A stretch of 64,000 bases of DNA, taken from positions 5,756-69,755 of the forward strand of contig CAYQMF010000015.1 of the NCBI GenBank assembly GCA_964418595.1, given 5' to 3'. This DNA comes from an uncultured candidatus Brocadiaceae bacterium. Its GTDB lineage: Bacteria > Planctomycetota > UBA1135 > UBA2386. A model generated the notes under the pieces. The model made no database searches, was not told where the DNA came from, and was given only the letters and a program-made list of their open reading frames with translations. Position 1 is the first letter of the stretch. Every line of letters starts with the position of its first letter. The translations under genes and the position numbers were made by a program. Shown in pieces: positions 14,091 to 46,188 of the stretch.

Positions 14091-14219
14091 GCTTCCCACC
14101 ACGTCTCGGCATCTCGTCTCCCCCGGGTACGGCGACCTGCGCGGGTTACCGCGTCCCGCCCGCCTGATATGAAGGTCGAGGCGCGCGTTCCTCGGTGCCC
14201 GACTCTCTCCCCGCTGCCC

Positions 14220-18047: not shown

Positions 18048-19490
18048 TCAGAAGGGGAGGTCTTCGGCGGCCACGGGCTCCGCGCGCGGCGTGATGCGCT
18101 GGTCGGCAGACCAGGAGTCGAACTCGAGGGCAAACGGATCGCCGAGCAGGCGCCAGCGGCCCGTTGTAGGCTCGTAGACCCCGCCCCAGTCCACGCGCAG
18201 GCCGGGCATGCCGCCGTGGGCCGCCAGGAAGCGCGCGCGGGCGCGGGCGCGCGTCGCCACCGGCGGGACCCACCGTTCGGTCTCGGTGCCGGCGGCCATC
18301 GGTGCGCCGACGCGGTGCTCGATGAGGCCTGACCCGACCATCGTGTCGAACACGCTCGTCGGATCGGTGATCGCGTGGTAGCTGTGGTCGATGAGGGTGA
18401 GCGCACGGAGACGCTGCGCGTCGCCCGGCAGCGTCGCCCAACTGCCGCCCATGTGCGTGAGCACGGAGTCGAACAGGCGCAGCTTGGCGAACGCGTCGAG
18501 CCGCCGGGCGAGCCACGGCTCGTCACCGCGCTGCATGGCGGCGAGGGTGTCCGCCCAGTCCTGCAGGCAGCGCGCGACCCACGGCGGCGCGTCGCGGCGG
18601 CGATCGGCCCACGCCCGCGCGAGGCCGAGGTACAGCGCCTGGATCTCGAGCACGATGCCGTGCACGCGCACCGCTTCGCCCGGGCCAGCGAGGCGACAGC
18701 ACGTGCGCAGGGTCTCCGCCCAGCTTCCGCCCAACGGCAGGCCGAGCCGTGCGCACGCAGCGGCGACCGCGGCCGGCACGCTCGGGTCGGCTTCGAGCGC
18801 GCGCAGCACCAGCGCGGTGGCCCCGTGCTGCAGCGCGAGGTTGAACTGCGATCGATGCCCGTCGCCGACCAGCAGGTGGCAGCGGTGGTAGCTGCGCTTG
18901 CCGGGCGTGTGGTGTTCTTCGCGGGCGGTGCTGAAGACGGCGCGGGCCGCGGTCGTCCCGCCTCCCGCGTCGTGGGTCATGAACAGGGGCCGCGTCGCCG
19001 CGAGCCGTTCGCCGCTGGGGAACAGCACGCCGCCGGAGCCGGCGTAGATGCGCGTGGCGAGGAACGGCAGCATGGCCGCGCCCAGGGTCGCGGCCGGTCG
19101 CGTCAGCAGGTAGTTCTCGTGCGTGCCCCACGTGTGCGCCTGCGGATGCAGGACGCCGTCGTGGTTGTTGGCGTGCAGTGACAGCACCAGACCATCGGCT
19201 GCGAGTTCGCGCACGGCGCGGGCGAGCAGCCCGACCTGCGCTTCGACCAGGAGCGCCAGCTCGTACGGATCGCTGCACTCCAGCGCCGCCAGCTCCGGGT
19301 GATCGTTGACGTCGACGTAGACTCGCCCGTAGGCGTTGAAGAACCCGCGGCCCACGTCCGGGAGCGAAGGCGCGTACGTCGCCATCAGGTCCAGCAGCCG
19401 CCGCAGCGCGGCAGGGCGTGGACCCGCCTGCACGAAGCACATCAGCTCGTGCTCCACACTCAGGAGGAACCTGGATCCGGGATCGGCCAT
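18048..19490 (-). CDS. Pup-ligase/deamidase family protein (PafA/Dop homologue, canonical motifs)
   Basis: Ordered family motifs: 'LLSVEHELMCF' (E-x-E), 'NAYGRVYVDVNDHPELAALEC', 'HTWGTHENYLL', 'LPFLATRIYAGSGGV', 'HRCHLLVGDGH'. Confidence 0.85.
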   Translation of the reverse strand: MADPGSRFLLSVEHELMCFVQAGPRPAALRRLLDLMATYAPSLPDVGRGFFNAYGRVYVDVNDHPELAALECSDPYELALLVEAQVGLLARAVRELAADGLVLSLHANNHDGVLHPQAHTWGTHENYLLTRPAATLGAAMLPFLATRIYAGSGGVLFPSGERLAATRPLFMTHDAGGGTTAARAVFSTAREEHHTPGKRSYHRCHLLVGDGHRSQFNLALQHGATALVLRALEADPSVPAAVAAACARLGLPLGGSWAETLRTCCRLAGPGEAVRVHGIVLEIQALYLGLARAWADRRRDAPPWVARCLQDWADTLAAMQRGDEPWLARRLDAFAKLRLFDSVLTHMGGSWATLPGDAQRLRALTLIDHSYHAITDPTSVFDTMVGSGLIEHRVGAPMAAGTETERWVPPVATRARARARFLAAHGGMPGLRVDWGGVYEPTTGRWRLLGDPFALEFDSWSADQRITPRAEPVAAEDLPF

Positions 19491-19498
19491 GGCTTCGC

Positions 19499-19702
19499 CT
19501 ACTGGCCGCTCGCGTTGCGGCGCGCGTTGAGTTCGCGCTCGACATCGACGCCGCTGACGCAGCGCTCGTGCGCCTGCTGCGCGATGGCATCGAGCGCTCG
19601 CACCTGCCGGAGCAGGCCCCCGGGTACCGGGGGCTCGGGATCGTGGTTGGCGGTCGTCGTCTGGGGACGCCGTTCGGCGCTGCGCTTGCGTTCGTCACTC
19701 AT
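19499..19702 (-). CDS. Pup/UBact-like small modifier (67 aa, C-terminal Gly-Gln)
   Basis: Fills the gap between the two ligase paralogues exactly (8-nt overlap upstream, 8-nt gap downstream). High GC3 codon usage. Polar, probably disordered N-terminus, helical C-half, and terminus '...ELNARRNASGQ*'. Confidence 0.7.
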   Translation of the reverse strand: MSDERKRSAERRPQTTTANHDPEPPVPGGLLRQVRALDAIAQQAHERCVSGVDVERELNARRNASGQ

Positions 19703-21359
19703 GGTGGGTTCCTCGCGTGGGTCGGGTCCGTGGGCTGCAGCAGGTCTCGCTCGGGCGCGACAGCTCGGGCCGGAGATCCTGCAAGGGGTGCGTCGTGTGC
19801 ACGGTGTCGTCCGCGTCGCTCAGGGACGCGAGGTCCATGACCTCGCGGGCGGCACCCAGCGCGTGCTCTGCCACCGCGCGACCGAGCCGGCCGGGGTGCG
19901 GCATGTCGACGCGGAGCCGGCGACCGAATCGCTCGTCGGTCAGGCTCAGCTCGACGTGGTCCCAGTCGACCGCCTCGATGTCGTCGGCGAAGCGCTTGAT
20001 GAGGCGGCCGCGCGTCCAGCTCCGACTCGCCTCCGGCCCATCGCGCAGGCACGCATCGATCTGCGCCCGGTCGATCAGCGGGTCGATGCGATCGTGTTCG
20101 AGCAGGCGCCAGATCGCGCCACGCGTCGGGTCGGTGTTGGTGAAGTCGTGGTCGAGCAGGCGCACGGCCGACGACTCGAGGCCTTCGCCCGTCCGCTCGC
20201 AGTGGCCGAGCAGGACCATGAGCTTGGCGGCCCAGTCGAGGTGGCGCGAGCACGCGGCGATGTCGCCGCGATCGGCGCGCTGCGCCAGCTCGACGATGCG
20301 GGGCAGGAGCTGCGCGGCGCAGGGCGCCACCGCGTCCTGGATCACGCCCTCCTCGACGAGGCGCAGCATCGCCTGCGCGATCTCGGCGACGTAGGCGCCG
20401 AGCGTCACCTGGCGACCGTCGGCGAGCGGCGCCGTCCCGCGCAACCGGCCGGACTCGAGGTCGAGCCCGAGGCTCCACGCACGCAGCGCCTCGACGGGCG
20501 AGGCGAGCAGGAGCTGGCCGTAGCCGACCTCGGCGGCGGCGAGGCAGCACTGCACGAAGCTCGTCATCAGCGCGCTCGAGACGAGGGCGAAGTCGAAGCC
20601 GATGAGGTGCAGCCGGTCGATGCCCTGCGCGTGCGGCTCGCGGCGGGCGTTGAGCAGGCCGCGCGAGAACGCCTCCGTCGTCGACAGCCCGCACACCCGC
20701 GACAGGTGGTGGGCGCGCGCGCTGAGGCTGAAGACCACCGAACCGTCGCGCAGCGGGAGCAGGTAGCCGCTGCCGAAGAACGGGACGGCGGCGGCGATCG
20801 CACTGGTGACGAAGCCGAGCACGCCTGGGTGACGCGGATCGACGATGAGGTCGTCGAAGAGCTGCGGTGCGATCGAGATGTTGAAGTGCGAGCCCCACGA
20901 GATCGACGGATCGAGGAGGTCGACGTTGGCGGCCGTCAGCAGGTAGCGCGTGCCCGCCTCGGCGTCTTCCTGGGCCTGCTGCCGCGCCGCCTCCGCGACG
21001 ACCAGCGTGCTCCAGCTCTGCGCGGCCACTTCGCACGGGCGATGCGTCTCCGCCGTGCACACCTCGACGTGCGCCATGTCGGAGTAGTAGCACTGGCCAT
21101 TCGACGGCCACTGGCGCAGGCAGTCGGTGGAACTCGCCGACGCGTACGACCCGCCCCAGTGGTCGCCCCGGCTCCAGCTCGAATCGCGCCGCGTGCGGCG
21201 TCGCCAGACGTTGCCTCCGACCCGCACGAAGGCCGTGTCGATGGCCCCGAGCACGCGTTGCGCCACGGTCCAGCTCGGGATCGCCTGGCCTCGGCCGTCG
21301 ATGCCGGTCGTCGACAGCTCGCAGTCGCGACCGACGAACTTCACGACGGGCGCGCTCAT
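19695..21359 (-). CDS. Pup-ligase/deamidase family protein (larger, divergent Dop-like paralogue)
   Basis: 'FVGRDCELST', 'NGQCYYSDMAHVEVCTAE', 'ISWGSHFNISI' (in place of HENY), 'VPFFGSGYLL', 'FSLSARAHHLSRVCGLSTTEAFSRGLLNARREPHA', 'DRLHLIGFDF'. Only the last 554 codons of the 802-aa track ORF are protein-like. The ATG overlaps the upstream stop (ATGA). Confidence 0.8.
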   Translation of the reverse strand: MSAPVVKFVGRDCELSTTGIDGRGQAIPSWTVAQRVLGAIDTAFVRVGGNVWRRRTRRDSSWSRGDHWGGSYASASSTDCLRQWPSNGQCYYSDMAHVEVCTAETHRPCEVAAQSWSTLVVAEAARQQAQEDAEAGTRYLLTAANVDLLDPSISWGSHFNISIAPQLFDDLIVDPRHPGVLGFVTSAIAAAVPFFGSGYLLPLRDGSVVFSLSARAHHLSRVCGLSTTEAFSRGLLNARREPHAQGIDRLHLIGFDFALVSSALMTSFVQCCLAAAEVGYGQLLLASPVEALRAWSLGLDLESGRLRGTAPLADGRQVTLGAYVAEIAQAMLRLVEEGVIQDAVAPCAAQLLPRIVELAQRADRGDIAACSRHLDWAAKLMVLLGHCERTGEGLESSAVRLLDHDFTNTDPTRGAIWRLLEHDRIDPLIDRAQIDACLRDGPEASRSWTRGRLIKRFADDIEAVDWDHVELSLTDERFGRRLRVDMPHPGRLGRAVAEHALGAAREVMDLASLSDADDTVHTTHPLQDLRPELSRPSETCCSPRTRPTRGTHHE

Positions 21360-23152
21360 GCGTGTTCTCCCGCTGCACGGTCTCCCACGGCCCGTTCTCC
21401 CACCACAGGCCCGACGAGATCGCGTTGCCAGCCGACTTCGTCGCGCGGCACGGTCTCGACGCGCTGGATGCGGCCGCGGACCCGCAGCAGGCGCTGCAGC
21501 GTGATCCAGTCGGCCTCCATCGCGCTCGCGGCTGCGCAGGCCTGATCGACGAGACCGGCGACGACGTCGTCGAGGCCGACTGCGCCGAAGCCGATGCCGC
21601 TGCGGCGGCGCCGCGCGCCGCGCAGCTTGGCCTGGCTCATCGCTTCGCGGTAGTGCACCGCGGACAGCAGCGTGCCCGCGGTGACGTCGATGCTGCGCTG
21701 CGGCTCGGTGCCGTAGCGCAGCACGACGGTGTCCAGGATGGTCGCAAGCGCGGGCCGCAGGATCGTGGCCTCGAGCACCGCGGGGGCGACGCCGTGGCGC
21801 ACGTCGCCATCGATCAGCCAGGGCACCTCGGCGGGCGCGTACACGGCCATGACCTTCGCCGCGGCCTCGGCGCCGAGCGGCGGCATCTCGAGGACGAGGT
21901 CGCCGAGGCGACCGGGCCGCTTCAGCGCCGGATCGACGGCGTCGGGGCGGTTGGTGAGGCCGAGCCACAGCACATGGGCGCGCGGCGTGGCCTCGGTGCG
22001 GACGAGCCCGTCCAGTTCGACGAGCAGGGCCTGGATCGCGTCGTTGTGCGCGCTGGACAGGAGCTCGCCGCCGTCGTGGCCCCCGGCACGCCGACCGAGG
22101 CAATCAATTTCGTCCATGACCACGATTTGGACGATGGGGCGCGTGCGCGGCACCGCCTGGCGCGCGCGGATGCTCCCGCACAGGTCTTCGCGCACGAGGC
22201 GCGCATCCTCGCCGTGCCACATCGACTTGAGCTCGTTGGGCTTGACCACGTAGAGCACGACGTCGAAGCCGCGCGTCGCACCGACGTCGCGCAGCCACGT
22301 GGCGACGAGACGCGTGAGCAGGGTCTTGCCCTCACCGGGCTTGAGCGACCACAGCAGCACGCCGTGCAGGGGTTCGAGGGCGAACTCGCCGCGGACGTCG
22401 TCCGCGAGGAGCCGCAACTCGATGGCCTCGAGCAGCGGTTCGAGCACGGGCTCGAGGCCGGCGACGTCCTCGGCGTCGACGGCGACGGAATCGATGCCGA
22501 CCTCGAAGCGGCTGTTGCTGCTGATGCTCGCCGCGCGCGCGATGGCCCAACCGGGCGCCTCACGGCTGAGGACGAGCCGGTCGCCGGGCCGCAGTGGTTC
22601 GTCGCGAAGGCACCGTGCGATCTGCACGATGTCTTCCTGCCCACCGACGCGGGCGACATGCACCTGCTCGCGCCCATCCGCATGCCAGCCGCGCATCTCG
22701 ACGACTTCGCCCAGGGCCCGCGCGCGCGCGCCGGCGTCGTCGGCGACGCCGATCAGCACCTGCTCCTTGGTGTGCACGCGCACCGGCTCCCAGGGTTCGA
22801 GGTCGCGGAGGCGGGCGATGTCGACTTCCGGGTGGATCGCGAGTTCGAGCACGTCGCCGCGCCAGCGCACCCGGGCGGCCGGGCCCTGCGGCGTGGTCAG
22901 CAAGCCCTCGCACACGCACAGCGCCGCCGGTCCGCGGAGCATGCCCTCGAGGATCTCGCGCATCTCCTTCGCCGCGGCCGCGGCCTGTTCGCACTCACGC
23001 CGGGCGCGCAGCCACCGCGCCGCGACGGTGACCGGATCCTGCGCGGCCTCCTGGAGGACGGTCTCGATCTCCTGGATCTGCGCGGGCGTCACGCGATCGA
23101 GGCGCACGCCGGCGAGGCGCAGGAGTTGGACGATGGTCTGTTGGTTGCTCAT
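21356..23152 (-). CDS. AAA+ ATPase, proteasomal-ATPase (Mpa/ARC/PAN)-like architecture
   Basis: N-terminal helical/coiled-coil region 'RECEQAAAAAKEMREILEGML'. Two OB-like segments ('ARVRWRGDVLELAIHPEV..', 'GEVVEMRGWHADGREQVHVARVGGQEDIVQIA..PLRPGDRLVL'). Walker A variant 'LKPGEGKTLL', Walker B 'IVVMDEID', 'KRPGRLGD'. Confidence 0.85.
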   Translation of the reverse strand: MSNQQTIVQLLRLAGVRLDRVTPAQIQEIETVLQEAAQDPVTVAARWLRARRECEQAAAAAKEMREILEGMLRGPAALCVCEGLLTTPQGPAARVRWRGDVLELAIHPEVDIARLRDLEPWEPVRVHTKEQVLIGVADDAGARARALGEVVEMRGWHADGREQVHVARVGGQEDIVQIARCLRDEPLRPGDRLVLSREAPGWAIARAASISSNSRFEVGIDSVAVDAEDVAGLEPVLEPLLEAIELRLLADDVRGEFALEPLHGVLLWSLKPGEGKTLLTRLVATWLRDVGATRGFDVVLYVVKPNELKSMWHGEDARLVREDLCGSIRARQAVPRTRPIVQIVVMDEIDCLGRRAGGHDGGELLSSAHNDAIQALLVELDGLVRTEATPRAHVLWLGLTNRPDAVDPALKRPGRLGDLVLEMPPLGAEAAAKVMAVYAPAEVPWLIDGDVRHGVAPAVLEATILRPALATILDTVVLRYGTEPQRSIDVTAGTLLSAVHYREAMSQAKLRGARRRRSGIGFGAVGLDDVVAGLVDQACAAASAMEADWITLQRLLRVRGRIQRVETVPRDEVGWQRDLVGPVVGERAVGDRAAGEHA

Positions 23153-23175
23153 GGCGGGTGTCGGGTCGGGGCGGG

Positions 23176-24201
23176 TCAGTCGGAGAAGCTCAGCCAGGGG
23201 ATCGAGGCCATGCGTCCGCCGCGCCACGCATGCACGGCGAGCACGGGACGTCTGCCGGGTGCGCCGAAGCGGCGGCCGGCGATGGGGAACACGGTGGTCT
23301 TGCTCGGGAACATGGCCTCGAGCACCTGGTAGTCGTCGAGCGACACGTGCTCGCAGCTCGGCAGTGCGCACTCGGCCTTCTGGTTGCAGTTGCCGCAGTC
23401 CTTGCCCCATCCGTGGCTGTGGAACACGGTGAGCGGCCGCTCGCCGCGGCCACGCAGCGCGGCCAGCTCGCCGGCTTCGGCCATTGCCTCGGGGTCGAAC
23501 TGGAGGCTGGCGAACGATCCGACGTGTCGGGTGTCGCCGAGCGCCTCCGACAAGACGGTGACGATGCGGGTGCGCGTGCCCGGCAGCGGTTCGCTCAGCC
23601 GCAGGAGCGTGCCCAGCACGCAGCCACCGATCTCCGCCGAGCCGGCGGCCTCGGTGCGATCGACGATGTCAGCGACGGCCCGGGCGCACATGAGCACCGG
23701 GCGGTCCGCGGCGAGTCCGCCGTCGCCGAGCGAGACGACCCCGAGGTCCTGTAGCGTGCCGTCGCGCACCAGCAGCGGCAGCAGGCGGGGCGGACGGGGC
23801 GTTGCCGGACCGGGCGTGGCGGTGAGCACCGTGTGCACGCGCTGGCCGGCCGACACTTGGATCTGCCGCGCCTGCAGCATCGTCGACATGCGGCGATCCC
23901 AGCGACCGGCGTCGAAGCGCTGCGCGTGCTCCGCACCGCTCGCCGCCGTCACGGTCACGTCGAGGCCGAGCACGCGCTCGCCCGCCGCAGAGACCGGTTC
24001 GATGGCGATGCGCACCGGCTCGGGCTCGGTGGGCAGCACATCGGCGAGGACGCCGCTGGTCCAGGCCTCTTCGGCGACGTCGGTGATGTCGTCGGTCACC
24101 GGGAACCAGGCCAGCGCCTCGCCCCCGGTCGCCTCGGTGCGCAGCTCCACGGCGAACTGGTGGCGGCAGGACAGCTCGACCTCGACGGCGATGGCGCTCA
24201 T
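23176..24201 (-). CDS. JAB/MPN (JAMM) metallopeptidase domain protein with N-terminal unknown domain
   Basis: JAMM elements in order: 'AEIGGCVLG' (Glu), 'TVFHSHGW' (HxH), 'VSLDDYQ' (S..D). A Cys-rich insert 'CGNCNQKAECALPSCEH' lies between them. The ATG overlaps the Ubl stop (ATGA). Confidence 0.8.
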   Translation of the reverse strand: MSAIAVEVELSCRHQFAVELRTEATGGEALAWFPVTDDITDVAEEAWTSGVLADVLPTEPEPVRIAIEPVSAAGERVLGLDVTVTAASGAEHAQRFDAGRWDRRMSTMLQARQIQVSAGQRVHTVLTATPGPATPRPPRLLPLLVRDGTLQDLGVVSLGDGGLAADRPVLMCARAVADIVDRTEAAGSAEIGGCVLGTLLRLSEPLPGTRTRIVTVLSEALGDTRHVGSFASLQFDPEAMAEAGELAALRGRGERPLTVFHSHGWGKDCGNCNQKAECALPSCEHVSLDDYQVLEAMFPSKTTVFPIAGRRFGAPGRRPVLAVHAWRGGRMASIPWLSFSD

Positions 24202-24461
24202 GGCCTTCCCGCCGAGACCTCCGGCAGGACGGTCCAGCGCGCGTCGTCCGCGGGGACCTCGTGCAGCAGGCTCTTGTTGTCGAGGCGGCGGCCGCGGCTG
24301 AAGGCCAGCCAGCGCAGGCCGTGGTCGGGGATGTCGAGCTCGCTGCGGAAGAACTCGATCGCCTGGCCGACGGTGTGGTCGGGCGTGAGGTCGTCGCCGA
24401 CGACGGCGCGCACGCGCTTCTGCTGGCTGAGGTCGGTCATCTCGATGGTGGCGGTGGTCAT
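24198..24461 (-). CDS. ubiquitin-like (beta-grasp) small protein, 87 aa
   Basis: The size, its position between the E2 side and JAB, and a C-terminal half 'LAFSRGRRLDNKSLLHEVPADDARWTVLPEVSAG-RP' that aligns ungapped by eye with ubiquitin '[34 protein letters not shown]'. Confidence 0.6.
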   Translation of the reverse strand: MTTATIEMTDLSQQKRVRAVVGDDLTPDHTVGQAIEFFRSELDIPDHGLRWLAFSRGRRLDNKSLLHEVPADDARWTVLPEVSAGRP

Positions 24462-25270
24462 GACGTTGCGTCTCCTTGGTTGGGGTCGTGGTGGATCGGC
24501 GCGTGGCCGAGGATGGCACGCGCGTACCGCGCGCGGAGATCCGCGTCTCCGCACAGCAACTGCAGCGAGGGCGCGGCGTGCTGGGCGAAGGCGGCGATGG
24601 CGCGCACCGTGCGCGCCAGGAAGGCGGGGGTGACGTCGAGCGCGTCGAGGCGAGCCTCGGCGTGCAGCTCGTGGCCGTGCCGGTCGCTCGCCTGCAGGGC
24701 GAGGCGCGCGAAGCGCACGCGGCCGTTGACGCGCAGCGCCTGGTCGGCCGCGGCGTCGCGGGCGGCGTCGGTCGGCCACGACGTGATCAGCCGGTGGGTG
24801 AGGCGGAGGCCGGTGCCGTCGGGATCGATCGTCACCGGCCGCACGAGACCGTCCAGGCTCACCCGCACCTCGACGCCGCGCGCACGGGCCGCGATCGCGT
24901 CCGGTTCGAACCGGCCGGCGCGCAGCAGGGCCCCGAGCGCATCGGGGTCGCAGCTCGTGGCGGCGCCGGTGTCGGCAGTGAGGGGACGCGCACTCGCGGC
25001 GACCGCGAGCGCGTCCACGAGCGTCTCGGCGCGGCCGCGCGGACCCGGCGGCAGGTCGGCCACGATCCAATGGCTCGCGGTGAACGCGGCGACGCGCGCG
25101 TTCCCGGGCAGGCAGGCGGTGTGCAGGAGCAGCGACGTCGGATCCGGGCCCGGCATGCCGCGCGGATCGAGGGCGAGTTCGATCGCGTACCCGCCATCGA
25201 GCGTCGGCGTGATGCGCGGCCCCGGCGCATGACGACGGCGCCGCGGCGTGCTGACGGTGGGGGTGGTCAC
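24458..25270 (-). CDS. hypothetical protein (270 aa), possible YbjN/CesT-chaperone-like C-terminal half
   Basis: GTG start overlaps the E2 stop (GTGA) and its stop overlaps the Ubl ATG (ATGA). Normal composition. The pattern 'ALRVNGRVRFARLALQASDRHGHELHAEARLDALDVTPAFLARTVRAIAAFAQ' resembles chaperone-like alpha/beta folds (weak, by eye). Confidence 0.55.
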   Translation of the reverse strand: MTTPTVSTPRRRRHAPGPRITPTLDGGYAIELALDPRGMPGPDPTSLLLHTACLPGNARVAAFTASHWIVADLPPGPRGRAETLVDALAVAASARPLTADTGAATSCDPDALGALLRAGRFEPDAIAARARGVEVRVSLDGLVRPVTIDPDGTGLRLTHRLITSWPTDAARDAAADQALRVNGRVRFARLALQASDRHGHELHAEARLDALDVTPAFLARTVRAIAAFAQHAAPSLQLLCGDADLRARYARAILGHAPIHHDPNQGDATS

Positions 25271-25857
25271 GCGGCCCCCTTGCCCCACAGGGGCGTGGCG
25301 GCCGGCAGCGCGGCGAGGGCTTCGCGGCCTTCGGCGAACCACTCCGCCGCGTCGTGATCGGCGGGGTCGACGGTGCTGACGTTGGCGTAGGTGAGGATCG
25401 AATAGATGTGCTCGAGGAGCGTGGTCAGCTGCATCGGGCCGCGCGGCAGCGCCCCCAGGCACAGGATCCCGAACAGGCGCGAGTAGTTGGGGTGCAGGAG
25501 CCCGGTGTCCCTCCCGATCAGCACGCACACCGACGGCTGGTCGAGGCCGGCCTCGAACGGATCGGCGCGGTAGACGATGGTGCCGCGCAGGGGACCTGCG
25601 GCGACGTCGACGCCTTCGCCGGGGCGGTGCTGGCGCAGGTAGGGGATCGCGAGCGTGAAGTCGAGGACACGCCGTGCGGGCAGGTGCGGCTCGATGCGCA
25701 GCTTCGGCGCGCCGCTGAGCAGCGGCTGGGCCGCGTCCCAGTTGCCCGCGAAGAACTCGGCAGCGAGCTGGGTGATGGGCGCGTCGGCTTCGGTGGACGG
25801 CTCCAGGAGAGAGAGCCGCCGCAGGAGGTCGGCGAGGTCGGGCGTCTGGTCGGTCAT
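25267..25857 (-). CDS. E2 (UBC-fold) ubiquitin-conjugating-enzyme-like protein
   Basis: 'DTGLLHPNYSRLFGILCLGALPRG' carries the HPN triad, with a Cys 9 residues after the Asn as in eukaryotic E2s. The ATG overlaps the E1 stop (ATGA). Confidence 0.7.
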   Translation of the reverse strand: MTDQTPDLADLLRRLSLLEPSTEADAPITQLAAEFFAGNWDAAQPLLSGAPKLRIEPHLPARRVLDFTLAIPYLRQHRPGEGVDVAAGPLRGTIVYRADPFEAGLDQPSVCVLIGRDTGLLHPNYSRLFGILCLGALPRGPMQLTTLLEHIYSILTYANVSTVDPADHDAAEWFAEGREALAALPAATPLWGKGAA

Positions 25858-27080
25858 TCGAGAAGGCCTCGTTGGGCAAAGGGCGTGTGCGCAGGGCGGA
25901 GCAGGAGATCGGTGCGCGTTGCGCCGGCGCGGGCGACGACCAGGGCGCCGTCGGGGATGCCGAGCGCGGCGAGGGGCGCATCGAGGATCCGCAGGTGCGC
26001 CGCTTGCGCGGCGCCGATCGACGCGAGCAGGGCGTCGCGCCGCCAGTACATCGCTCGGCCGCAGCGCGGGCAGGCCGGCGGGGTCGACCACACGCACGCG
26101 GGCTGCACGACACCGCTGCCGCAGGAGCAGGCGGCAGCCAGCGCCAGCGGAGCGGCGAGCGGAGTCAGGGTCGGGTCCGGCGCGCGCAGGAGGTCGCGCG
26201 CCTTGGCGAACAACCCGCGCAGGGTGATCTCCGCCGTGGTCGACGCGAGCGCGACCGCGGTGATCGGCGCATGGTCGCCGAGGCAACGGGCGCTGCGCGC
26301 CAGCGCGAGCGTGTGCAGCACGCCGCCGGTGAGGTCGAGGAGGGTCTCGTGGTCGAGCGCCCGCTCGCGGTCGCGGCCGCCGACCAACCGTTGCGCCTGC
26401 AGCAGACCGAGGCCGACGACGGCCAGCGTCGTCGCCATGCCGGCCAGCGTCGGCGCGCGGCCTTCCGCGCCATCGTCGGCGCGGCCGCCGGGACAAGGCG
26501 TCGGTGGTCCGCCGACGAGGTCTTCGACGCCGTACGAGCAGAGCTGGCAGGCGTGGCCGCCCCCGCCGTGCGACACGAGGACGCGGCCCATCTCGCGCGT
26601 ACCCGTGCCATCGACGGCCAGCCGGACCAGCGGGATCGCGGCGGCGTTGGAGATCGACGTCAGGTGCCGAGCGAGGCCGCCGGCGTCGGTGCAGTCCACG
26701 ATCAGATCGCAGGCGGCGAGCACGCCGTAGCCGACGCCACGCACGTCGATCGGGAGCGCGAAGGCCCGGCCGGGCTCGATCGCGTCGCACGCGTCGACCA
26801 CGGCGTCGACCTTGCGGCGTCCCACCGCCGCGATGGGGACGGCCTGTGTGCCGACGTTGTGGGCCTCGACCCGATCCGCATCGATCGCGAGCACCACCGC
26901 GCCGCTGCGCACGACCGCCAGCGCGAAGTGCGAGCCCAGCGCCCCGGCGCCGATGATCGCGATGCGTGCCGTGCGCCAGCGAGCGAACGGATCGCCCGTG
27001 AGCAGTGAGGTGCCACGCACCCGCGCCAGGCGGTCGCTCGCGGGTGCGGCCACGGGCATGGCGTGCAGCTCAGCGCGCAT
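25854..27080 (-). CDS. ThiF/MoeB/E1-like adenylyltransferase (ubiquitin-activating-enzyme-like)
   Basis: 'ARIAIIGAGALGSHFALAVVRSGAVVLAIDADRVEAHNVGTQ' (Rossmann GxGxxG plus DxD..N), 'DLIVDCTD', and Cys pairs 'CQLC' and 'CPRC'. The ATG at 27080 overlaps the upstream stop by 11 nt (alternative ATG at 27059). Confidence 0.85.
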   Translation of the reverse strand: MRAELHAMPVAAPASDRLARVRGTSLLTGDPFARWRTARIAIIGAGALGSHFALAVVRSGAVVLAIDADRVEAHNVGTQAVPIAAVGRRKVDAVVDACDAIEPGRAFALPIDVRGVGYGVLAACDLIVDCTDAGGLARHLTSISNAAAIPLVRLAVDGTGTREMGRVLVSHGGGGHACQLCSYGVEDLVGGPPTPCPGGRADDGAEGRAPTLAGMATTLAVVGLGLLQAQRLVGGRDRERALDHETLLDLTGGVLHTLALARSARCLGDHAPITAVALASTTAEITLRGLFAKARDLLRAPDPTLTPLAAPLALAAACSCGSGVVQPACVWSTPPACPRCGRAMYWRRDALLASIGAAQAAHLRILDAPLAALGIPDGALVVARAGATRTDLLLRPAHTPFAQRGLLE

Positions 27081-27663
27081 CGCGGCCCTCCTTCGCCATC
27101 GCCAGCAACTCGGCGAGGCGCGGGCCACCGCGGCGTGCCGGCGGGCGCCAGCGACGGGCGCGCGGGTCGAACCCGCACTGGTGGCAACGCAAGGTCGGCC
27201 GCCACGCGGTGCGCTTGAACATGCCCGCGCACGGCGTCGTCGGCGTGCCGGGGCAGACCACGATCGGCTCGCCCGCGGCGAGTCGCGTCCGCGTGCGCAG
27301 GCAACGCTGGTCGTCGCCGTGCTGCGCCGGATCGTAGGTCGTCTCCACGGGTTCCGTGTCGGCCGAGACCCACGTCGGGTGGCCGCCCATGTCGATGCGA
27401 TCGCCGTGCCGCAGGACGTGCAGCCCGATGCCCGCCGGCGTGCCGTTGATCGTCACGCCGCCGCCGAGGTCAGCCGGCACGAGGAGCGCACCGACGGTGC
27501 GCCCGCGGCGGGCGGCGAACACGGTCGCGTGGTGCGCCGCGTCCTGCGGGTCTTGGACCGCGACGCCGGTGGCGGCGATACCGACGATGCGACCGACGAC
27601 CTGCTCCGTGCCGCCGTCGCCGTACCAGAGCGTGACCTGCGTGATCGGAGTTTGCGGGTTCAT
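27070..27663 (-). CDS. FHA-domain protein with C-terminal Cys-rich zinc-ribbon-like segment
   Basis: FHA-like 'VVGR...AAHHATVFAARRG...LLVPADLGGGVTINGTP...HVLRHGDRIDMGG'. C-terminal 'CLRTRTRLAAGEPIVVCPGTPTTPCAGMFKRTAWRPTLRCHQCGF'. The ATG overlaps the upstream stop (ATGA). Confidence 0.65.
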   Translation of the reverse strand: MNPQTPITQVTLWYGDGGTEQVVGRIVGIAATGVAVQDPQDAAHHATVFAARRGRTVGALLVPADLGGGVTINGTPAGIGLHVLRHGDRIDMGGHPTWVSADTEPVETTYDPAQHGDDQRCLRTRTRLAAGEPIVVCPGTPTTPCAGMFKRTAWRPTLRCHQCGFDPRARRWRPPARRGGPRLAELLAMAKEGRDAR

Positions 27664-28259
27664 GGGGTGGCCTCGTCGGTGGAGTAGCCCTTCAACCGCG
27701 CGCGCACCGCGTCTGCCAGAGACGGGTCGGCGAGCGCCTTCACGTACCGATCCACGTACGCCTGCAAGATCGGCGACATCGGCACCTGCCCGAGCCCGGG
27801 CACGCGCAGCGTCGCCGCGAGCCGGCCACCCTGTCGCTGCTGCACGAGGGGCGCGACGGAGTGGCCCGGCCACGCCCTCGCTGCCGCACGCGCGATCTTG
27901 GCGTTGAGGGTACGGATGTACGTGCCGACGCCTTCCGCATGGATCGGCACGGAGTGGCCGTCGAGGATCGCGAGCAGCGCGGCGAGCCCAGCCAGAGTCG
28001 GGCGGCCGCGGCGCCAACTCGGCCGTGGGTCGCTGGCGCGCGGGGTGACCGCGTCGGTGATCTCGACGAACAGCAACGCCAGCAGCAGGCGGGTGCAGCG
28101 CGCCGGGATCGCGACGCGCAGCGGCGGGCGTGGCTCGGTGGCGTGCACTTCCAGTTCGCCGCGACCGTCGTCGTCGATGCGCAGCGTGTAGGAGATCGGC
28201 GGAGTTGACGGCGAACGCGGGTCGGCGGAGCGTTTCATCGTGAGGATGAAGGTCCGCAC
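27660..28259 (-). CDS. hypothetical protein, possible OmpR/PhoB-type winged-helix (Trans_reg_C-like)
   Basis: First gene of the operon. 'LRVAIPARCTRLLLALLFVE....VGTYIRTLNAKIARAA' resembles the winged-helix recognition pattern (by eye only). An alternative start is ATG at 28238. Confidence 0.5.
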   Translation of the reverse strand: MRTFILTMKRSADPRSPSTPPISYTLRIDDDGRGELEVHATEPRPPLRVAIPARCTRLLLALLFVEITDAVTPRASDPRPSWRRGRPTLAGLAALLAILDGHSVPIHAEGVGTYIRTLNAKIARAAARAWPGHSVAPLVQQRQGGRLAATLRVPGLGQVPMSPILQAYVDRYVKALADPSLADAVRARLKGYSTDEATP

Positions 28260-28512
28260 GCGCGAGCAACCTGTCGACCGGGTGCGGATGGCATTCGGCG
28301 CTGAATACGCGCTCTCGCTTCGCGGCCTTACGCGGTGCGTGAGCGCGGCTCGCGTTCAGTGTGGAAAGCCGCAGACTCGCGGGGAGTCACGCGGCGCGAG
28401 GGGGGAGCGGAGTCGGCGCGCGGTGTCCATGATGTCGATCCGCGGTCATGCTCCCCCTCGGCGCATCGAAGGCCGCAACCGTCACCGTTCCTCCTTCCAA
28501 GGACTCGCACCC
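28260..28512. promoter_or_regulatory. divergent intergenic region between the Ubl/Pup operon and the SorC-type regulator gene
   Basis: 253-nt non-coding gap flanked by divergently oriented start codons. Promoters for both units must lie here, but I could not identify specific boxes confidently. Confidence 0.4.
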
Positions 28513-29697
28513 ATGCCGAAGGCTCGCACGCGTTTCACCGATCCCGAAATCCTCGCCGCCGCGATCCTGCGCTCGCGTGGTGCTCTCCAGGCCAGCATCG
28601 CCGAAGCGCTGGGCGTGTCGCCGGCGACCGTGACCCGGATGCTGGATGAAGCGGAGGCCAACAAGTGGTTCAACCCGAACCCGGCGGTGCTGTTCCGCAA
28701 CGTGCCGCCCGGCCTCGTCGACGAGGCGAATGCCTACCTCGCGCCGTCGGAGCTCGGCGAGAAGCTGCGGCTCGCGATGGGCAGCGAGCACCGCTGCCAT
28801 GTCTCGATCATCCGCGACAAGACGACCCGCGCGTGGAACGTGGGCGCCGCCGGGGCGGTCGTCCAGCAGTTGATCGACGCCGGCGTACTGGGAGTATCCT
28901 GGGGCTGGGCGATCTCCGGCGTGGTCGACGGCCTGGAGCGGATGGTGATGTCGCCGCCGCGGGCCGACGGGCGTACGCCGGTCCGGCCGATCCCGGTGTG
29001 TGGCGATCCGATCTGCGCACACAAGACCCGGCAGGAGTTCTCGTCGACCTGGCTGGCGGACTGCATCGATCGGGTTCTCAACGACGACGCGGCGCGCGAG
29101 GCGGTGCCGTCGTTGTCGGCGGTGTTCGCCTACATCCCCCGCGCCATGGCCAAGCCTTCGAGCGGCGTGCGCGAGTTCCTGGCGAACAGCCCCGGCTACA
29201 GCGAACTCGTCGGCGCGACCCCCGGCGGAGGCCTCTTCGCCAAAGTCGACACCCTGCTCACGGGCATCGGGATTCCGGCCACCTCCGGTCCCTACTCGCT
29301 CGGGGTCTTCGTGCGCGAGCGCGCCGAGTGCGAGAAGATCCCTGAGGCGGAGATGAGCCGGCTGGTCTTCGGCGACATCGCGGGCGTGCTCATCCCGCGG
29401 CCGAACCTGAGTGCCGCCGATCGCAAGCTCGTGCAGAGTCTCAACGAGGGGTGGACCGGCCTGCGGCTCGCCGACATCGAGCGCTGCGCCCGCGAGGGCC
29501 GCGCGAAGGGCCGGGGCGGCGTGATCGTCGTCACGCAGGGCAAGCTCAAGAAGGACTTCATCCTCGAGTTGCTGCGGTTGGGTCTCGTCAACCGGCTCGT
29601 CGTGGATGGCGAGCTGGCGGATGCGCTCTCGGCGCACGGGCGGGCTGCTCCGGCGAAGTCGGCGGGGCTTGCCTCGTCCGGCGCAGCCGAATCGTGA
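28513..29697 (+). CDS. SorC/DeoR-like transcriptional regulator (HTH plus sugar-phosphate-binding-type domain)
   Basis: N-terminal HTH 'LQASIAEALGVSPATVTRMLDEA'. C-terminal 'GVSWGWAISGVVDGL', 'LLTGIGIP', 'GDIAGVLIP', 'VIVVTQGKLKKDFILELLRLGLVNRLVVDGELADAL'. Internal ATG at 28513. Confidence 0.7.
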   Translation: MPKARTRFTDPEILAAAILRSRGALQASIAEALGVSPATVTRMLDEAEANKWFNPNPAVLFRNVPPGLVDEANAYLAPSELGEKLRLAMGSEHRCHVSIIRDKTTRAWNVGAAGAVVQQLIDAGVLGVSWGWAISGVVDGLERMVMSPPRADGRTPVRPIPVCGDPICAHKTRQEFSSTWLADCIDRVLNDDAAREAVPSLSAVFAYIPRAMAKPSSGVREFLANSPGYSELVGATPGGGLFAKVDTLLTGIGIPATSGPYSLGVFVRERAECEKIPEAEMSRLVFGDIAGVLIPRPNLSAADRKLVQSLNEGWTGLRLADIERCAREGRAKGRGGVIVVTQGKLKKDFILELLRLGLVNRLVVDGELADALSAHGRAAPAKSAGLASSGAAES

Positions 29698-29847
29698 GGC
29701 CGAGGCTCATGGGCCGCGAGGTTTTTCGAGATCGGATTGGATGATCGGCCTCCTGACGGCGCTATGGCGCCGGCACGATTGCGCGGGGCTTCCCCGACGC
29801 CTCGCAGGCACCTAGGATCGGCCACCCCTCGTTCCAGGAAGGACAGC

Positions 29848-32835
29848 ATGATCGCTCCCGTACCGTTGGTTCTCGCCGCCAGCCTGGCGGTGAGTGGGAC
29901 TTCCGTCGCCGCGCAAGGTCCGCGGCTCGATCTGCCGCAGCATCCCGTACGCTGGAGCCAGGACGTCGGGTCCGCGCGCAATCCCGCCCGCGCCGCCGTC
30001 GTGGTCACTGCCGACACCTACGACGCGCGACCGAACTGGGCGTTGCCCGCGGCGGCGGCCGCGGGCGACCTGGTCGGCAAGGCACTCGAGGAGGCCGGGG
30101 GATTCTCGAATGGCATCACCCGGGTGCACCGCGAGCGCGCGATCCCGTACTACGTGGAAGATGCGATCGTGGAGGCCGGCCGGAGCCTGACCCGCCCGGG
30201 CGTGCTGCTCGTGTATTGGCTGGGGCACGGCTGCGTGAAGAGCGGGCAGCAGGAGTTGTTCACGCATCACTCGAAAGATGTCGGCTCCGACTACGACCAG
30301 ACGATCGGGCGCGCGACGATCGTCCAGTGGCTGGACAAGGCGCGTGCCGAAGCCGAAGGACGCGGCGTGCGCCTCACGACCGCGTTGATCGTGGATGCCT
30401 GCCGCGTCGAGACCGCTGGTCCGCCCCCCAAGGCCAGACTGATCGCCAGCCAGACCTGGGAGGTCTACAGCACGGAGGAGGGCCACTTCGTGCCGGCCGG
30501 AAGCGGCGACGCGTTCCCGTTCAGCCACCAGTTCGCGGCGGCGATGCGCAGCCACGCGGAGCGCAACATCGTGGTCTCGCTGGTGGACGTGTTCCGTGAC
30601 TGCGACTACGAGACCCGTCGGGCGCCCGGTGGTCTGAAGCCGAAACTGATTCCCCCCAACGGGGATCTGACCGCGGCCGCGCCCGCGCTCGTCGTGCCGC
30701 CGCGCGTGGCGTTCACGTTGCGCGTCAAGGATGCCCTCGCAGACACTGCGGTGGCCGGCGCGGAAGTCGTGTTCAACGACCAGAAGATCCAGCTCGACGG
30801 TCCCACGTGCCAGCTCGAGGGTGGGGCGAGCCGGGACAGCCTCGTCAGCCGCCACAACCTCGTCATCAATTGCCGGGGCTATCTCTCCCGCGCCGATCGG
30901 GTCGAGCTGCGCCGTGAGCACACCGGCCGGGAGTTGACCATCGCGCTCCTCCCCGCGCTCTGCGTCGTCACCGGCAGGATCGAGCCGCGACCCAAGGGCC
31001 GCGTGCGCGTCGAGGCTTCGTCGATGGAGGGGATCAGGTCGGGCTTCCACGTGGCGGCTGCGCTCACCGATGCGGACGGAAGGTTCGAGTTGCGTCTGCC
31101 GCGGGTAACCGAGGGCAGCAAGGTGCGGATCGTCGCGGGCACGAAGTCGATCGCCGACTACGACATCCCGCGCACGACGCGGCTCGTGTCGGTTGGGGCC
31201 CACGATGGGATCAGCCTCCACGAGATGACCCTGAACCTGGGCTTGGAGGCCGGCGCCGCGCTCGGCGTGGAGGCCGTCATGAGCAAGCCGGCGGACGCAC
31301 CGGCGAAGGACCCGGAGTTCGCGAGTCGGATCGACCGCATCGAGTGGGGGTACGTGCTGGATGCCGTGCGCCTCGAGAACTTCGACCTCGCCGTGGAGCG
31401 CATGGCGCAGTTCAAGGGCAACGAGCCCGGACTCGACGCGTGGCGCACGTTCGTTGCGAGCCGCTGGGCTCCGGTCCGCTTGCGCGAGGGCCTGAAGGCC
31501 GGCAAGGCAGAGGGCGACTGGAGCAAGGCGGAGCAGGTCGTGACGTGGTTGAGTCAGCCGCGACGGGTCGCGCTGCCCAACGAGGTCGAGATCGAGGAAC
31601 TCGTGGCAGAGGTGACCCGCGAGAAGATGCCGTTGGCGGCGCGCCGGGCATACGAGGCGGGATACCAGGCTCGCCGTGAAGGCCGCCTGGAGGATGCACT
31701 TGCGGGCTACGTGGCTGCTCGCTCTGGCGTGAGCGCGCACTACCGCGCCGAAGTGGAGATGGCGATCGAGGATGTATCCGCCCAGCTCTACGAGCGGCAC
31801 AGCAGCGCCGGGTCGGATGCGGAGCTGAGCGGCGATTTCGAGAAGGCCCTGGCCGCCTACATGCGGGCGGCGGAGTACAACAAGCGCGCGGAGTGGAACG
31901 TCGAGCGGTTGCTGAAGGATCCACGGTTCGTGGGGACGGCGACGGGGCGCGCCGCGCTCGTGCGGCTCAACCGCGGCGCCGAAGTGTTCGGTTCGTGGAA
32001 CGTGAAGATCGTGGAGGCTTCGTTCGGCACTGTGTCCGGCTACCCGCGACGGGTCGAGGACCAGACCACGGGCATCGTGCTCATCCTGGTGGAGCCCGGT
32101 GAGTTCGCCATGGGCAGCACGGCCGACGCGAACAGCCGCCCCGTCCATCAGGTGCGGATCACCCAGCCGTTCTACCTGGGCGAGACGGAGGTGACCGTCG
32201 AGCAGTGGCGGCGCTTCGCGATGGCGAACCGCGCGAACCGTGACCTGGCGCGTGGCCTCGCCGACCCGCGCACCAACGCGCCGTGGAAGAAGGCGGTTGC
32301 GTGGGACGAGTCGCATCCGGTCGTCAACGTGCGGTGGAGCGAGGCCAATGCGTTCTGCCGGCACTTCGGCATGCGCCTGCCCACGGAGGCCGAGTGGGAG
32401 TACGCATGTCGAGCCGGAACGCCCGGTCCGTTCTGGTTCGGCTCGAACCCGAGCGACGGTCAGGGCAACGGCAACTTCTTCGGCCGCGACACACAGCGCG
32501 CGTCCGGACTGACGCAGGGGATGCCCTGGCCGTTCGAGGATGGACACCTGCTCACGGCGCCGGTTCGCAGCTTCCGCCCCAACGCGTGGGGCTTCTACGA
32601 CATGTCTGGCAACGTCGCCGAGTACTGCGCCGATGCCTACGACCCGCAGGCGTACTCCGGCAGGCGCGGTGAGGTCGTCGACCCGTTCGTGCAGGCGGGC
32701 CCGCAGCGCGTGTACCGCGGTGGCTCGTGGGTGCACGTGCCCACGGCCGCGACCTCGGCATCGCGGGTCGGGCGTGACCCGGAGAAGGGAACGGACTACG
32801 TGGGGTTCCGCGTCGCGAGGTCGGTGGGATCGTGA
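29848..32835 (+). CDS. secreted caspase-like (peptidase C14) - CarboxypepD_reg-like - TPR-like - FGE-sulfatase (SUMF1) domain protein
   Basis: Signal peptide 'MIAPVPLVLAASLAVSGTSVAAQ'. Caspase dyad 'LLVYWLGHGCV' and 'ALIVDACRVE'. 'TDADGRFELRLP'. C-terminal 'VEPGEFAMGS...RWSEANAFCRHFGMRLPTEAEWEYACRAGT...NAWGFYDMSGNVAEYC...YRGGSW...VGFRVAR'. Confidence 0.85.
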   Translation: MIAPVPLVLAASLAVSGTSVAAQGPRLDLPQHPVRWSQDVGSARNPARAAVVVTADTYDARPNWALPAAAAAGDLVGKALEEAGGFSNGITRVHRERAIPYYVEDAIVEAGRSLTRPGVLLVYWLGHGCVKSGQQELFTHHSKDVGSDYDQTIGRATIVQWLDKARAEAEGRGVRLTTALIVDACRVETAGPPPKARLIASQTWEVYSTEEGHFVPAGSGDAFPFSHQFAAAMRSHAERNIVVSLVDVFRDCDYETRRAPGGLKPKLIPPNGDLTAAAPALVVPPRVAFTLRVKDALADTAVAGAEVVFNDQKIQLDGPTCQLEGGASRDSLVSRHNLVINCRGYLSRADRVELRREHTGRELTIALLPALCVVTGRIEPRPKGRVRVEASSMEGIRSGFHVAAALTDADGRFELRLPRVTEGSKVRIVAGTKSIADYDIPRTTRLVSVGAHDGISLHEMTLNLGLEAGAALGVEAVMSKPADAPAKDPEFASRIDRIEWGYVLDAVRLENFDLAVERMAQFKGNEPGLDAWRTFVASRWAPVRLREGLKAGKAEGDWSKAEQVVTWLSQPRRVALPNEVEIEELVAEVTREKMPLAARRAYEAGYQARREGRLEDALAGYVAARSGVSAHYRAEVEMAIEDVSAQLYERHSSAGSDAELSGDFEKALAAYMRAAEYNKRAEWNVERLLKDPRFVGTATGRAALVRLNRGAEVFGSWNVKIVEASFGTVSGYPRRVEDQTTGIVLILVEPGEFAMGSTADANSRPVHQVRITQPFYLGETEVTVEQWRRFAMANRANRDLARGLADPRTNAPWKKAVAWDESHPVVNVRWSEANAFCRHFGMRLPTEAEWEYACRAGTPGPFWFGSNPSDGQGNGNFFGRDTQRASGLTQGMPWPFEDGHLLTAPVRSFRPNAWGFYDMSGNVAEYCADAYDPQAYSGRRGEVVDPFVQAGPQRVYRGGSWVHVPTAATSASRVGRDPEKGTDYVGFRVARSVGS

Positions 32836-32968: not shown

Positions 32969-33814
32969 ATGGCGGTGACGAGGGCGCTCGTCTTGGTCGC
33001 GCTCGCGCTGCCGGCGGCCGCCCAGTTCGAAGAGGGTGAGAAGCAGGACCAGGGTGTCGCCAAGCCGCCGCCGAAGGAGGTCGAGCGCCCGGTCACGCCG
33101 CCGCGTTCCTACACGCCGTCCCGCACGCTGAATGCCGTCGAGTTCGGCAAGGGCGAACTCACCATCGCCTTCGGCGCCGGCGACGAGACGCACGAGACGA
33201 TCGGTGCCAGTCCGCCGCTGGATGGCGAGGTGGATTCCACCTACTTCCGGCTCGGCCTGGCCGCGGCCGACGGCGGAGTGCTCCGCTTCGGGTTGGAGTG
33301 GATGGCCTCGGACGACGACCTGTTCCCGACCTTCGCGGGCGAGGAATCGTCGGAGATGATCGATGTCGAGTTCCTGGGCGGCGGCGAGGTCCGAGGGCGG
33401 CGCGCTCGGCTCCAGATCATGGGCGGACTGACGATCCACCAGTTGAGCCTCGACTTCGACCCGCAGACCGTCGACTGGCTGGGGGTCGGCTTCCGCCTCG
33501 CGGTGGCTCCGGAGATCGCGCTCGTGGCCTCCGATGATGGCGAGAGTTTCCTCTCGGCGTTCGGCATGCTGTCGGGATCGTTCTCGGTCTACGACATCGA
33601 CGCGTCGACGCAGTCGGAGACCTTTACCTCCACGGGCACGCAGTTCGGGGTGGACGTTGGTTTGCGCGTGCAGGCAGAGCGGTTCGTCGCCAGCCTCTCC
33701 TACGTCCTGCGGTCGATGAGCGTCGACGACAGCGATCCTGCGGGCGGCGTGTTCGTCCGCGAGATCGACCACGAGTTCTCCGGGATCGTCGCGTCGGTCG
33801 GCGTGCGCTTCTGA
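32969..33814 (+). CDS. outer-membrane beta-barrel-like protein
   Basis: Signal peptide 'MAVTRALVLVALALPAAAQ', alternating-residue beta strands, and a C-terminal '...GIVASVGVRF' ending in Phe. Confidence 0.6.
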   Translation: MAVTRALVLVALALPAAAQFEEGEKQDQGVAKPPPKEVERPVTPPRSYTPSRTLNAVEFGKGELTIAFGAGDETHETIGASPPLDGEVDSTYFRLGLAAADGGVLRFGLEWMASDDDLFPTFAGEESSEMIDVEFLGGGEVRGRRARLQIMGGLTIHQLSLDFDPQTVDWLGVGFRLAVAPEIALVASDDGESFLSAFGMLSGSFSVYDIDASTQSETFTSTGTQFGVDVGLRVQAERFVASLSYVLRSMSVDDSDPAGGVFVREIDHEFSGIVASVGVRF

Positions 33815-36418: not shown

Positions 36419-36655
36419 GTGGACTCCGGAGAGGAGCGATGGGGGGCTGAGGGGAGAGATGGCTTCGCGGACCGAAGTGGTCGGCGAGCGCGCGGCAACA
36501 ATCCGGTCGCTTGCCCTCCCCGTCAACGCCCGGCGAACGATCGGGCATACGCCCGCGCGGGCCGAGGGACGGCGGCCCGAGGCAGCGTTCTTCCTCGCCG
36601 TACGGCTGACCGCGGTGCGGTCGGGAGATTCGGCTGCTGCGGTGGAACGGATCCG

Positions 36656-46061: not shown

Positions 46062-46188
46062 CGCCACCGACCGCCATGTGTCCCGCGGCGAGACGGCGTC
46101 GGGGCTCGGCGAACAGTGTCCCGCCGATCGTGACGACACAGGCGAGGAGCCGGCGCGCGGTGGCGCCGGCGGTCCAGGGAAACCCACC

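Follow-up and report, generated by a model that had tools for sequence, protein, structure and literature searches.

The gene at positions 29848-32835 of the forward strand in a 64,000-nucleotide stretch of DNA from an uncultured candidatus Brocadiaceae bacterium (contig CAYQMF010000015.1 of assembly GCA_964418595.1, positions 5,756 to 69,755; the whole stretch is called here the window) encodes a protein in which a hydrophobic leader is followed by a divergent caspase-type domain carrying a His/Cys dyad, two beta-sandwiches, a helical repeat region and a domain with the fold of formylglycine-generating enzymes (FGE). We propose, with moderate confidence, that the product is a modular cysteine protease that belongs to the caspase/metacaspase superfamily, is exported to the periplasm or secreted, and uses its C-terminal domain for targeting. 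We infer its proteolytic activity, the targeting role of its C-terminal domain and its final location as follows: the protein would be exported by the Sec pathway and its signal peptide removed, the C14 domain (His127/Cys185) would cut protein substrates, the two beta-sandwiches and the helical repeat might form a rigid spacer or scaffold, and the FGE-like domain, having lost its copper-binding cysteine pair, would deliver the protease to its target, be it a protein, a glycan or a surface. An earlier note made from the letters of the window had described a secreted multidomain caspase-like/FGE protein at this position and had read it as an extracytoplasmic sensor-protease; the observation is confirmed, and the interpretation as a whole is partly supported. 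The features of the gene are as follows.

29836..29843, +: Shine-Dalgarno-like AGGAAGGA, read from the sequence, 4 nt before the ATG at 29848
29848..32835, +: whole gene (open reading frame list, GC3 of 0.87, homologues by phmmer)
29848..29913, +: signal peptide, residues 1-22, a hydrophobic leader with a predicted signal peptidase I site VAA / QG
29932..29955, +: conserved LPxxPxRW motif, residues 29-36, just past the signal peptide (many family N-termini and the alignment consensus)
29983..30702, +: divergent caspase-type domain (Peptidase C14, clan CD), residues about 46-285 (phmmer family, PF00656 in relatives, AlphaFold2 model)
30226..30228, +: codon of His127, predicted catalytic (WLGHG, residues 124-128), invariant and aligned with the SGHG histidine of AtMC9/AtMC4
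30400..30402, +: codon of Cys185, predicted catalytic (VDACR, residues 182-186), invariant and at the end of strand 176-186 of the AlphaFold2 model
30703..30948, +: first beta-sandwich (CarboxypepD_reg/PEGA-like), residues 286-367, all-beta in the AlphaFold2 model, with PF13620 and PF08308 in relatives
30955..31236, +: second beta-sandwich, residues about 370-463, all-beta in the AlphaFold2 model and conserved with relative P0002
31243..31989, +: alpha-helical repeats, residues 466-714, the C-terminal part TPR-like (AlphaFold2 helices, weak TPR matches in relatives)
32002..32832, +: FGE-sulfatase-fold domain without the catalytic cysteine pair, residues 719-995 (Pfam match 746-991)

The caspase assignment begins with a family of relatives. 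Searching by phmmer with residues 40-285 recovered 74 representatives, each standing for a cluster at 50% identity, 12 of them at E < 1e-30; an exhaustive HMMER search was needed for this, as a word-indexed search with residues 1-740 returned the protein itself and one relative only. Domain content was scanned in 51 members of the family, and motifs and leaders were counted in 75 sequences. Peptidase_C14 (PF00656) is matched by 23 of the 51 members, several of which pass its gathering score across model positions 2-225 of 233, and four (P0008, P0009, P0016 and P0068) reach 40-48 bits over almost the whole model, the cut-off being 21.4. The domain of the window protein is in turn connected by phmmer to three of these four, P0008, P0009 and P0016, at E = 1e-33 to 5e-27. 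When a profile of 29 family domains was compared with the PDB it matched metacaspase-9 and metacaspase-4 (E = 8e-6 to 1e-5), aligning the GHG of the family with the catalytic SGHG of the Arabidopsis metacaspases; no PDB entry was matched when the intermediate member P0074 served as the phmmer query. The window protein itself is matched weakly by the NCBIfam model caspase_w_EACC1 (E = 6e-7) and by the PADLOC caspase model (E = 5e-4, 17 bits).

The presence of an intact dyad, which the earlier note had claimed, is borne out by the alignments. Glycine 126, His127 and Cys185 are invariant in the 51-sequence family alignment, in which identity to the window protein is just 21-39%; the conservation of D183 and R186 is 90% or higher in the family alignments. 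The G-H and D-x-C motifs are likewise invariant in the 29-sequence domain alignment, and GH[GA] followed at the right spacing by D-x-C is found in 64 of the 75 sequences, the remainder being mostly fragments. The AlphaFold2 model built from the 51-sequence alignment (pLDDT 87.7, pTM 0.74; a model from the single sequence reached pLDDT 37.6 and was set aside) gives over residues 48-282 the order beta-alpha-beta-alpha-beta(His)-hairpin-alpha-beta(Cys)-beta-alpha-alpha-beta, and this predicted order is consistent with a caspase fold. His127 lies in the model within a long beta3 strand (residues 118-131), and both dyad residues are on the expected strands (in C14 the histidine follows strand 3 and the cysteine strand 4). 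By homology and by its dyad the protein is a putative member of peptidase family C14. The D-x-C motif is common to metacaspases and paracaspases, AtMC9 and AtMC4 having it around the catalytic cysteine, and it is the sole hint to specificity, suggesting a preference for basic P1 residues. A further stretch conserved in the family, a loop of the form APPPxA(R/K)L (30403-30450, residues 186-201), lies just past the catalytic cysteine. It may be speculated that LPxxPxRW acts as a prosegment and this loop as an autoprocessing loop, as in metacaspases.

The leader of the window protein, MIAPVPLVLAASLAVSGTSVAA|QG, is hydrophobic and ends in an AxA-type site. A strongly hydrophobic N-terminal segment is present in 67 of the 75 family sequences and a lipobox-like motif in 33 of them, which suggests that export is a trait of the whole family, the cleavage site and the final location being predicted. 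As the leader is family-wide, it argues against a cytoplasmic abortive-infection role; both the signal peptide and the envelope role that the earlier note had preferred on its account are in this respect supported. Two observations weigh against an exported caspase: the Peptidase_C14 model of Pfam does not match the window protein even at E <= 10, and the signal peptide of the window protein lacks a basic n-region. With no direct Pfam match available, we base the caspase assignment on transitive homology and on the family profile.

In the middle of the protein two CarboxypepD_reg-like beta-sandwiches had been described, and two all-beta segments, at residues 286-367 and 372-463, are indeed predicted by the model; the CarboxypepD_reg identity, though, belongs to relatives (10 of the 51, with PEGA also found in their beta region) and not to the window protein, in which the Pfam models CarboxypepD_reg, PEGA and TPR find no match. 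One such relative is P0016, in which PF13620 and PF08308 fall at residues 297-365. The helical region, put at about 350 residues by the earlier note, measures about 250 residues (466-714) in the model, and the TPR matches of the relatives are weak and lie close to its end.

The C-terminal domain is matched by the Pfam model FGE-sulfatase (PF03781) at E = 8e-53, over residues 746-991 and model positions 6-255 of 255. Its nearest structures, by sequence search of the PDB and by Foldseek, are the FGEs of Streptomyces coelicolor and human, the S. coelicolor enzyme being closest in Foldseek (E = 4e-18, target TM-score 0.72), followed in these searches by PvdO, PorK, a Treponema surface protein and EgtB-type enzymes; in NCBIfam its scores against GldK, PvdO and EgtB all fall well short of the cut-offs. 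The complete FGE-sulfatase domain of the earlier note is therefore complete as a fold, whereas both catalytic cysteines are gone. At the position of LCHDSYC in the S. coelicolor enzyme the window protein reads 'VHVPT..AA', His and Ala standing in place of the cysteine pair, and both cysteines are found in none of the 18 family FGE-like domains aligned with MAFFT. Aerobic FGE requires this pair for binding Cu(I). Because the pair is absent, the most plausible reading of the domain is a non-catalytic module that would bind a ligand or a target, and we do not class it as an FGE, although it has the fold; a true FGE was accordingly rejected as its identity. A secreted sulfatase of the Cys type is encoded at 44280-46190 on the minus strand (Pfam Sulfatase, E = 4e-48); it carries a CTPTR motif, which requires a formylglycine maturase. 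Taken with the high GC of the window, such a sulfatase would, at a guess, be in keeping with Planctomycetota. A true FGE was not found in the scanned parts of the window, and, its catalytic cysteines missing, the FGE-like domain cannot mature this sulfatase.

Across the family, the leader, the C14 domain, the two beta-sandwiches and the helices form a constant N-terminal module; P0002, for example, is 30% identical to the window protein over residues 48-443 and again over 527-689. The C-terminus is variable, being FGE-like in 23 of the 51 members and a Kelch propeller, PEGA, Sel1 or Ig-like in others. Such swapping is what one would expect if the module served an exported enzyme for targeting or adhesion, and it is accounted for by targeting no less well than by sensing. 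The only relatives named at NCBI, three in number, come from one metagenome-assembled genome, GCA_041398565.1 (Planctomycetota bacterium), and are called 'tetratricopeptide repeat protein', 'formylglycine-generating enzyme family protein' and 'SUMF1/EgtB/PvdO family nonheme iron enzyme'. Four or more paralogues occur in this genome, on L034 (10001-12877 and 14485-18237), L002 and L037, two of them 1.6 kb apart. No relative was found in the species-genome contigs scanned with the window protein, exact look-ups of the window protein and of P0011 yielded no recorded contig, and searching the 64,000-nt window with the family HMMs revealed no paralogue.

That the reading frame is a genuine gene is confirmed by several observations. 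It is a single open reading frame (ORF) of 995 codons and a stop; the GC content at third codon positions (GC3) is 0.87, the GC of the codon positions being as in a genuine gene, in sequence of about 70% GC; and a Shine-Dalgarno-like site and homologues are present. The start at 29848 is preferred because this site is a strong one and because of the N-termini of homologues, and an NCBI record of the identical 995-residue protein agrees with it; longer N-termini from 29737 or 29764 were rejected on the same grounds. The ORF is open upstream to 29698 and is in frame with the preceding gene (28240-29697), a stop codon and 150 nt lying between them. A long antisense ORF at 29812-32736 was dismissed as the usual artefact of high GC, and scans for promoters and terminators around 29848-32835 found none.

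Surveys since 2012 have listed caspase-FGE fusions, and the window protein adds a divergent member to this already catalogued metacaspase-FGE type. Asplund-Samuelsson et al. (2012; PMC3501461) found an FGE-sulfatase fusion in 33 of 671 prokaryotic metacaspases, which made it the fifth commonest partner domain; metagenomes yielded metacaspase-FGE fusions again, together with a metacaspase-CarboxypepD_reg architecture (PMC4933709), and Microcystis MaOC4 is a further orthocaspase-FGE fusion (PMC5756287). The window protein shares with these an N-terminal C14 domain with the His-Cys dyad and a C-terminal PF03781 domain. It differs from them in that the Pfam C14 model misses about half of its subfamily, itself included, in that the subfamily is consistently exported by signal peptide or lipobox, in that two beta-sandwiches and a helical repeat are inserted between the C14 and FGE-like domains, and in that the catalytic cysteines are lost, whereas the surveys treated the FGE part as enzymatic. 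The best matches among solved structures, the plant metacaspases AtMC9 and AtMC4 (PDB 9n3d, 8a53 and 6w8s), align from beta1 to the catalytic histidine, the significant alignment covering only the first ~90 residues; these plant proteins are cytosolic, eukaryotic and free of accessory domains, and the residue aligned with the S1 Asp of metacaspases is not conserved in the window family.

A comparison of another kind is offered by the gingipains of Porphyromonas (clan CD, family C25), which are exported caspase-fold proteases followed by an Ig-like beta-sandwich and by adhesin or targeting domains. The likeness lies in the possible manner of working and carries no claim of membership: the searches made gave no sequence similarity to gingipains, and the C-terminal domain that gingipains use for the type IX secretion system (T9SS) was not found in the window protein.

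The alternative that survives best, though we consider it unlikely, holds that the protein is an extracytoplasmic ligand-gated sensor-protease, the FGE-like domain of which senses a ligand of the envelope or of the outside and switches the caspase on to signal or to kill. The pTM of the model suggests a defined arrangement of the domains that could permit autoinhibition, and the conserved N-terminal motif and the loop past the catalytic cysteine could be regulatory. FGE-sulfatase domains have, moreover, been described as sensors of defence STAND NTPases (PMC13581612), in a study in which caspase-like effectors of defence supply the second of the two domain types found here. Those STAND proteins, however, are cytoplasmic and centred on an NTPase, whereas the window protein has a signal peptide, no defence genes nearby and neither the NTPase nor an oligomerisation module such as links FGE sensors with effectors in STAND proteins. 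Further points speak against a sensor: the C-terminal domain is freely swapped for Kelch, PEGA, Ig and Sel1, as are targeting and adhesion modules, no partner gene is conserved, and several paralogues occur in one genome. Nor does the protein qualify as part of an anti-phage caspase-like effector system, given the weak PADLOC match, the lack of defence neighbours and the signal peptide. A more specific version, in which the FGE-like domain would recognise a foreign or envelope-derived molecule and release proteolysis, as an extracytoplasmic counterpart of the cytoplasmic STAND logic of FGE sensor and caspase effector, strikes us as improbable; were it true, the swapped Kelch, PEGA and Ig C-termini would give the paralogues distinct ligand specificities.

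Also improbable is a non-proteolytic scaffold or adhesin, in which the caspase-like domain would be a pseudo-enzyme or a binding domain and the protein a structural part of the envelope, like the FGE-fold ring protein PorK/GldK. Other proteins with the FGE fold, such as PvdO, PorK/GldK and variable protein 1 of Treponema denticola, are not known to have formylglycine-generating chemistry and are found outside the cytoplasm. These three (PDB 5hha, 9mzu and 2y3c) share the fold with the window protein and differ from it in being single-domain proteins or ring components that are not fused to a protease. GldK is the best NCBIfam match of the FGE-like domain and PorK structures are among its PDB matches, yet the GldK match is of 107 bits against an equivalog cut-off of 350 and covers the C-terminal half of the model only, and the scanned neighbours hold no T9SS genes; an identity with GldK/PorK was rejected for these reasons. 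Pseudo-orthocaspases do occur in bacteria, but those described in PMC6426788 carry Tyr and Ser in place of the dyad, whereas in our family its His and Cys are invariant across all 51 aligned sequences.

We return to the reading of an exported, targeted protease to consider its surroundings, since the gene lies beside a locus that contains homologues of protein-tagging genes. The neighbouring genes are listed here.

18051..19490 and 19698..22103, -: two Pup_ligase homologues, one of which (802 aa) is considerably extended at its N-terminus
21359..23410, -: AAA ATPase with a proteasomal OB domain
23179..24519, -: protein with a weak JAB domain
25857..27128, -: ThiF/E1-like protein
27663..28259, -: gene without an assigned function
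28240..29697, +: upstream neighbour, a putative regulator containing a helix-turn-helix (HTH), with weak HTH and Sugar-bind Pfam matches
32969..33814, +: downstream neighbour, a secreted protein with signal peptide MAVTRALVLVALALPAAAQ and the C-terminus ...SVGVRF

It is very unlikely that the protein is a partner of this Ubl/Pup tagging locus, for instance as a protease that degrades or cuts tagged proteins, or that the two belong to one defence or stress island, as the earlier note had entertained. Proximity is all that speaks for it, the ThiF gene ending 2.7 kb upstream and the Pup_ligase, AAA and JAB genes lying 5-12 kb upstream. The tagging genes are, however, on the opposite strand, with two genes (27663-28259 and 28240-29697) in between, and their machinery is cytoplasmic whereas the target protein is exported. 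Co-occurrence in relatives, which the note had proposed to examine, was looked for in nine neighbourhoods (those of P0002, P0003, P0005, P0006, P0007, P0008, P0009, P0014 and P0017), and Pup_ligase, ThiF, JAB and proteasomal AAA were found in none of the nine. The neighbours of these relatives differ among themselves, the gene standing alone in variable contexts, and tblastn of ten neighbours from the window, the HTH gene and 32969-33814 included, against six of the nine loci gave no match. PADLOC reported nothing for the immediate neighbours and generic similarity of the E1 and AAA type for the tagging genes; a defence island was rejected, as it has no PADLOC support. Since the nine loci of relatives lack the tagging genes and an exported protein stands against a cytoplasmic machinery, the proximity is best treated as coincidence. 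Neither 185,579 species genomes nor the JGI metagenomes yielded a close relative of the ThiF gene, the top match reaching 38% identity over a fragment; scans anchored on ThiF met just generic ThiF proteins (23-38% identity), none near a family member, in a comparison that lacked close relatives of the locus.

That the protein is a bifunctional enzyme whose C-terminal domain matures sulfatases as an active FGE is scarcely credible: the fold is complete, its closest structures are true FGEs, a secreted CTPTR sulfatase is encoded 11 kb away and a dual role in modification has been speculated on (PMC3501461), but the cysteine pair has become His and Ala here and is not found together in any of the 18 aligned relatives.

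Other genes of the window may be mentioned briefly. A C-terminus like ...SVGVRF is typical of outer-membrane beta-barrels, and the product of 32969-33814 is possibly such a barrel; it has no Pfam or PADLOC match. A gene at 33902-36526 on the minus strand encodes an 875-aa protein rich in Thr, Ser, Gly and Asn with a signal peptide and unusual base composition (GC at first codon positions 0.56, GC3 0.92), and its product likewise has no Pfam or PADLOC match. Three further ORFs, 14169-18035 (+, 1289 aa), 38593-40587 (-, 665 aa) and 46051-49635 (+, 1195 aa), have good coding statistics and no Pfam match at E <= 0.01.

The analysis newly defines an exported subfamily of ~74 clusters, shows that its FGE cysteines have been lost and that its C-terminus is modular, and corrects annotation: the public names of relatives omit the protease domain and can be amended. 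In biological terms the gain is a modest one: we probably have here one secreted protease among the many of an environmental bacterium, and the tagging locus is not explained by it. The surveys that listed caspase-FGE fusions assumed an enzymatic FGE part, and the strict retention of the dyad while the FGE cysteines were lost across the subfamily points instead to a binding role of the FGE fold.

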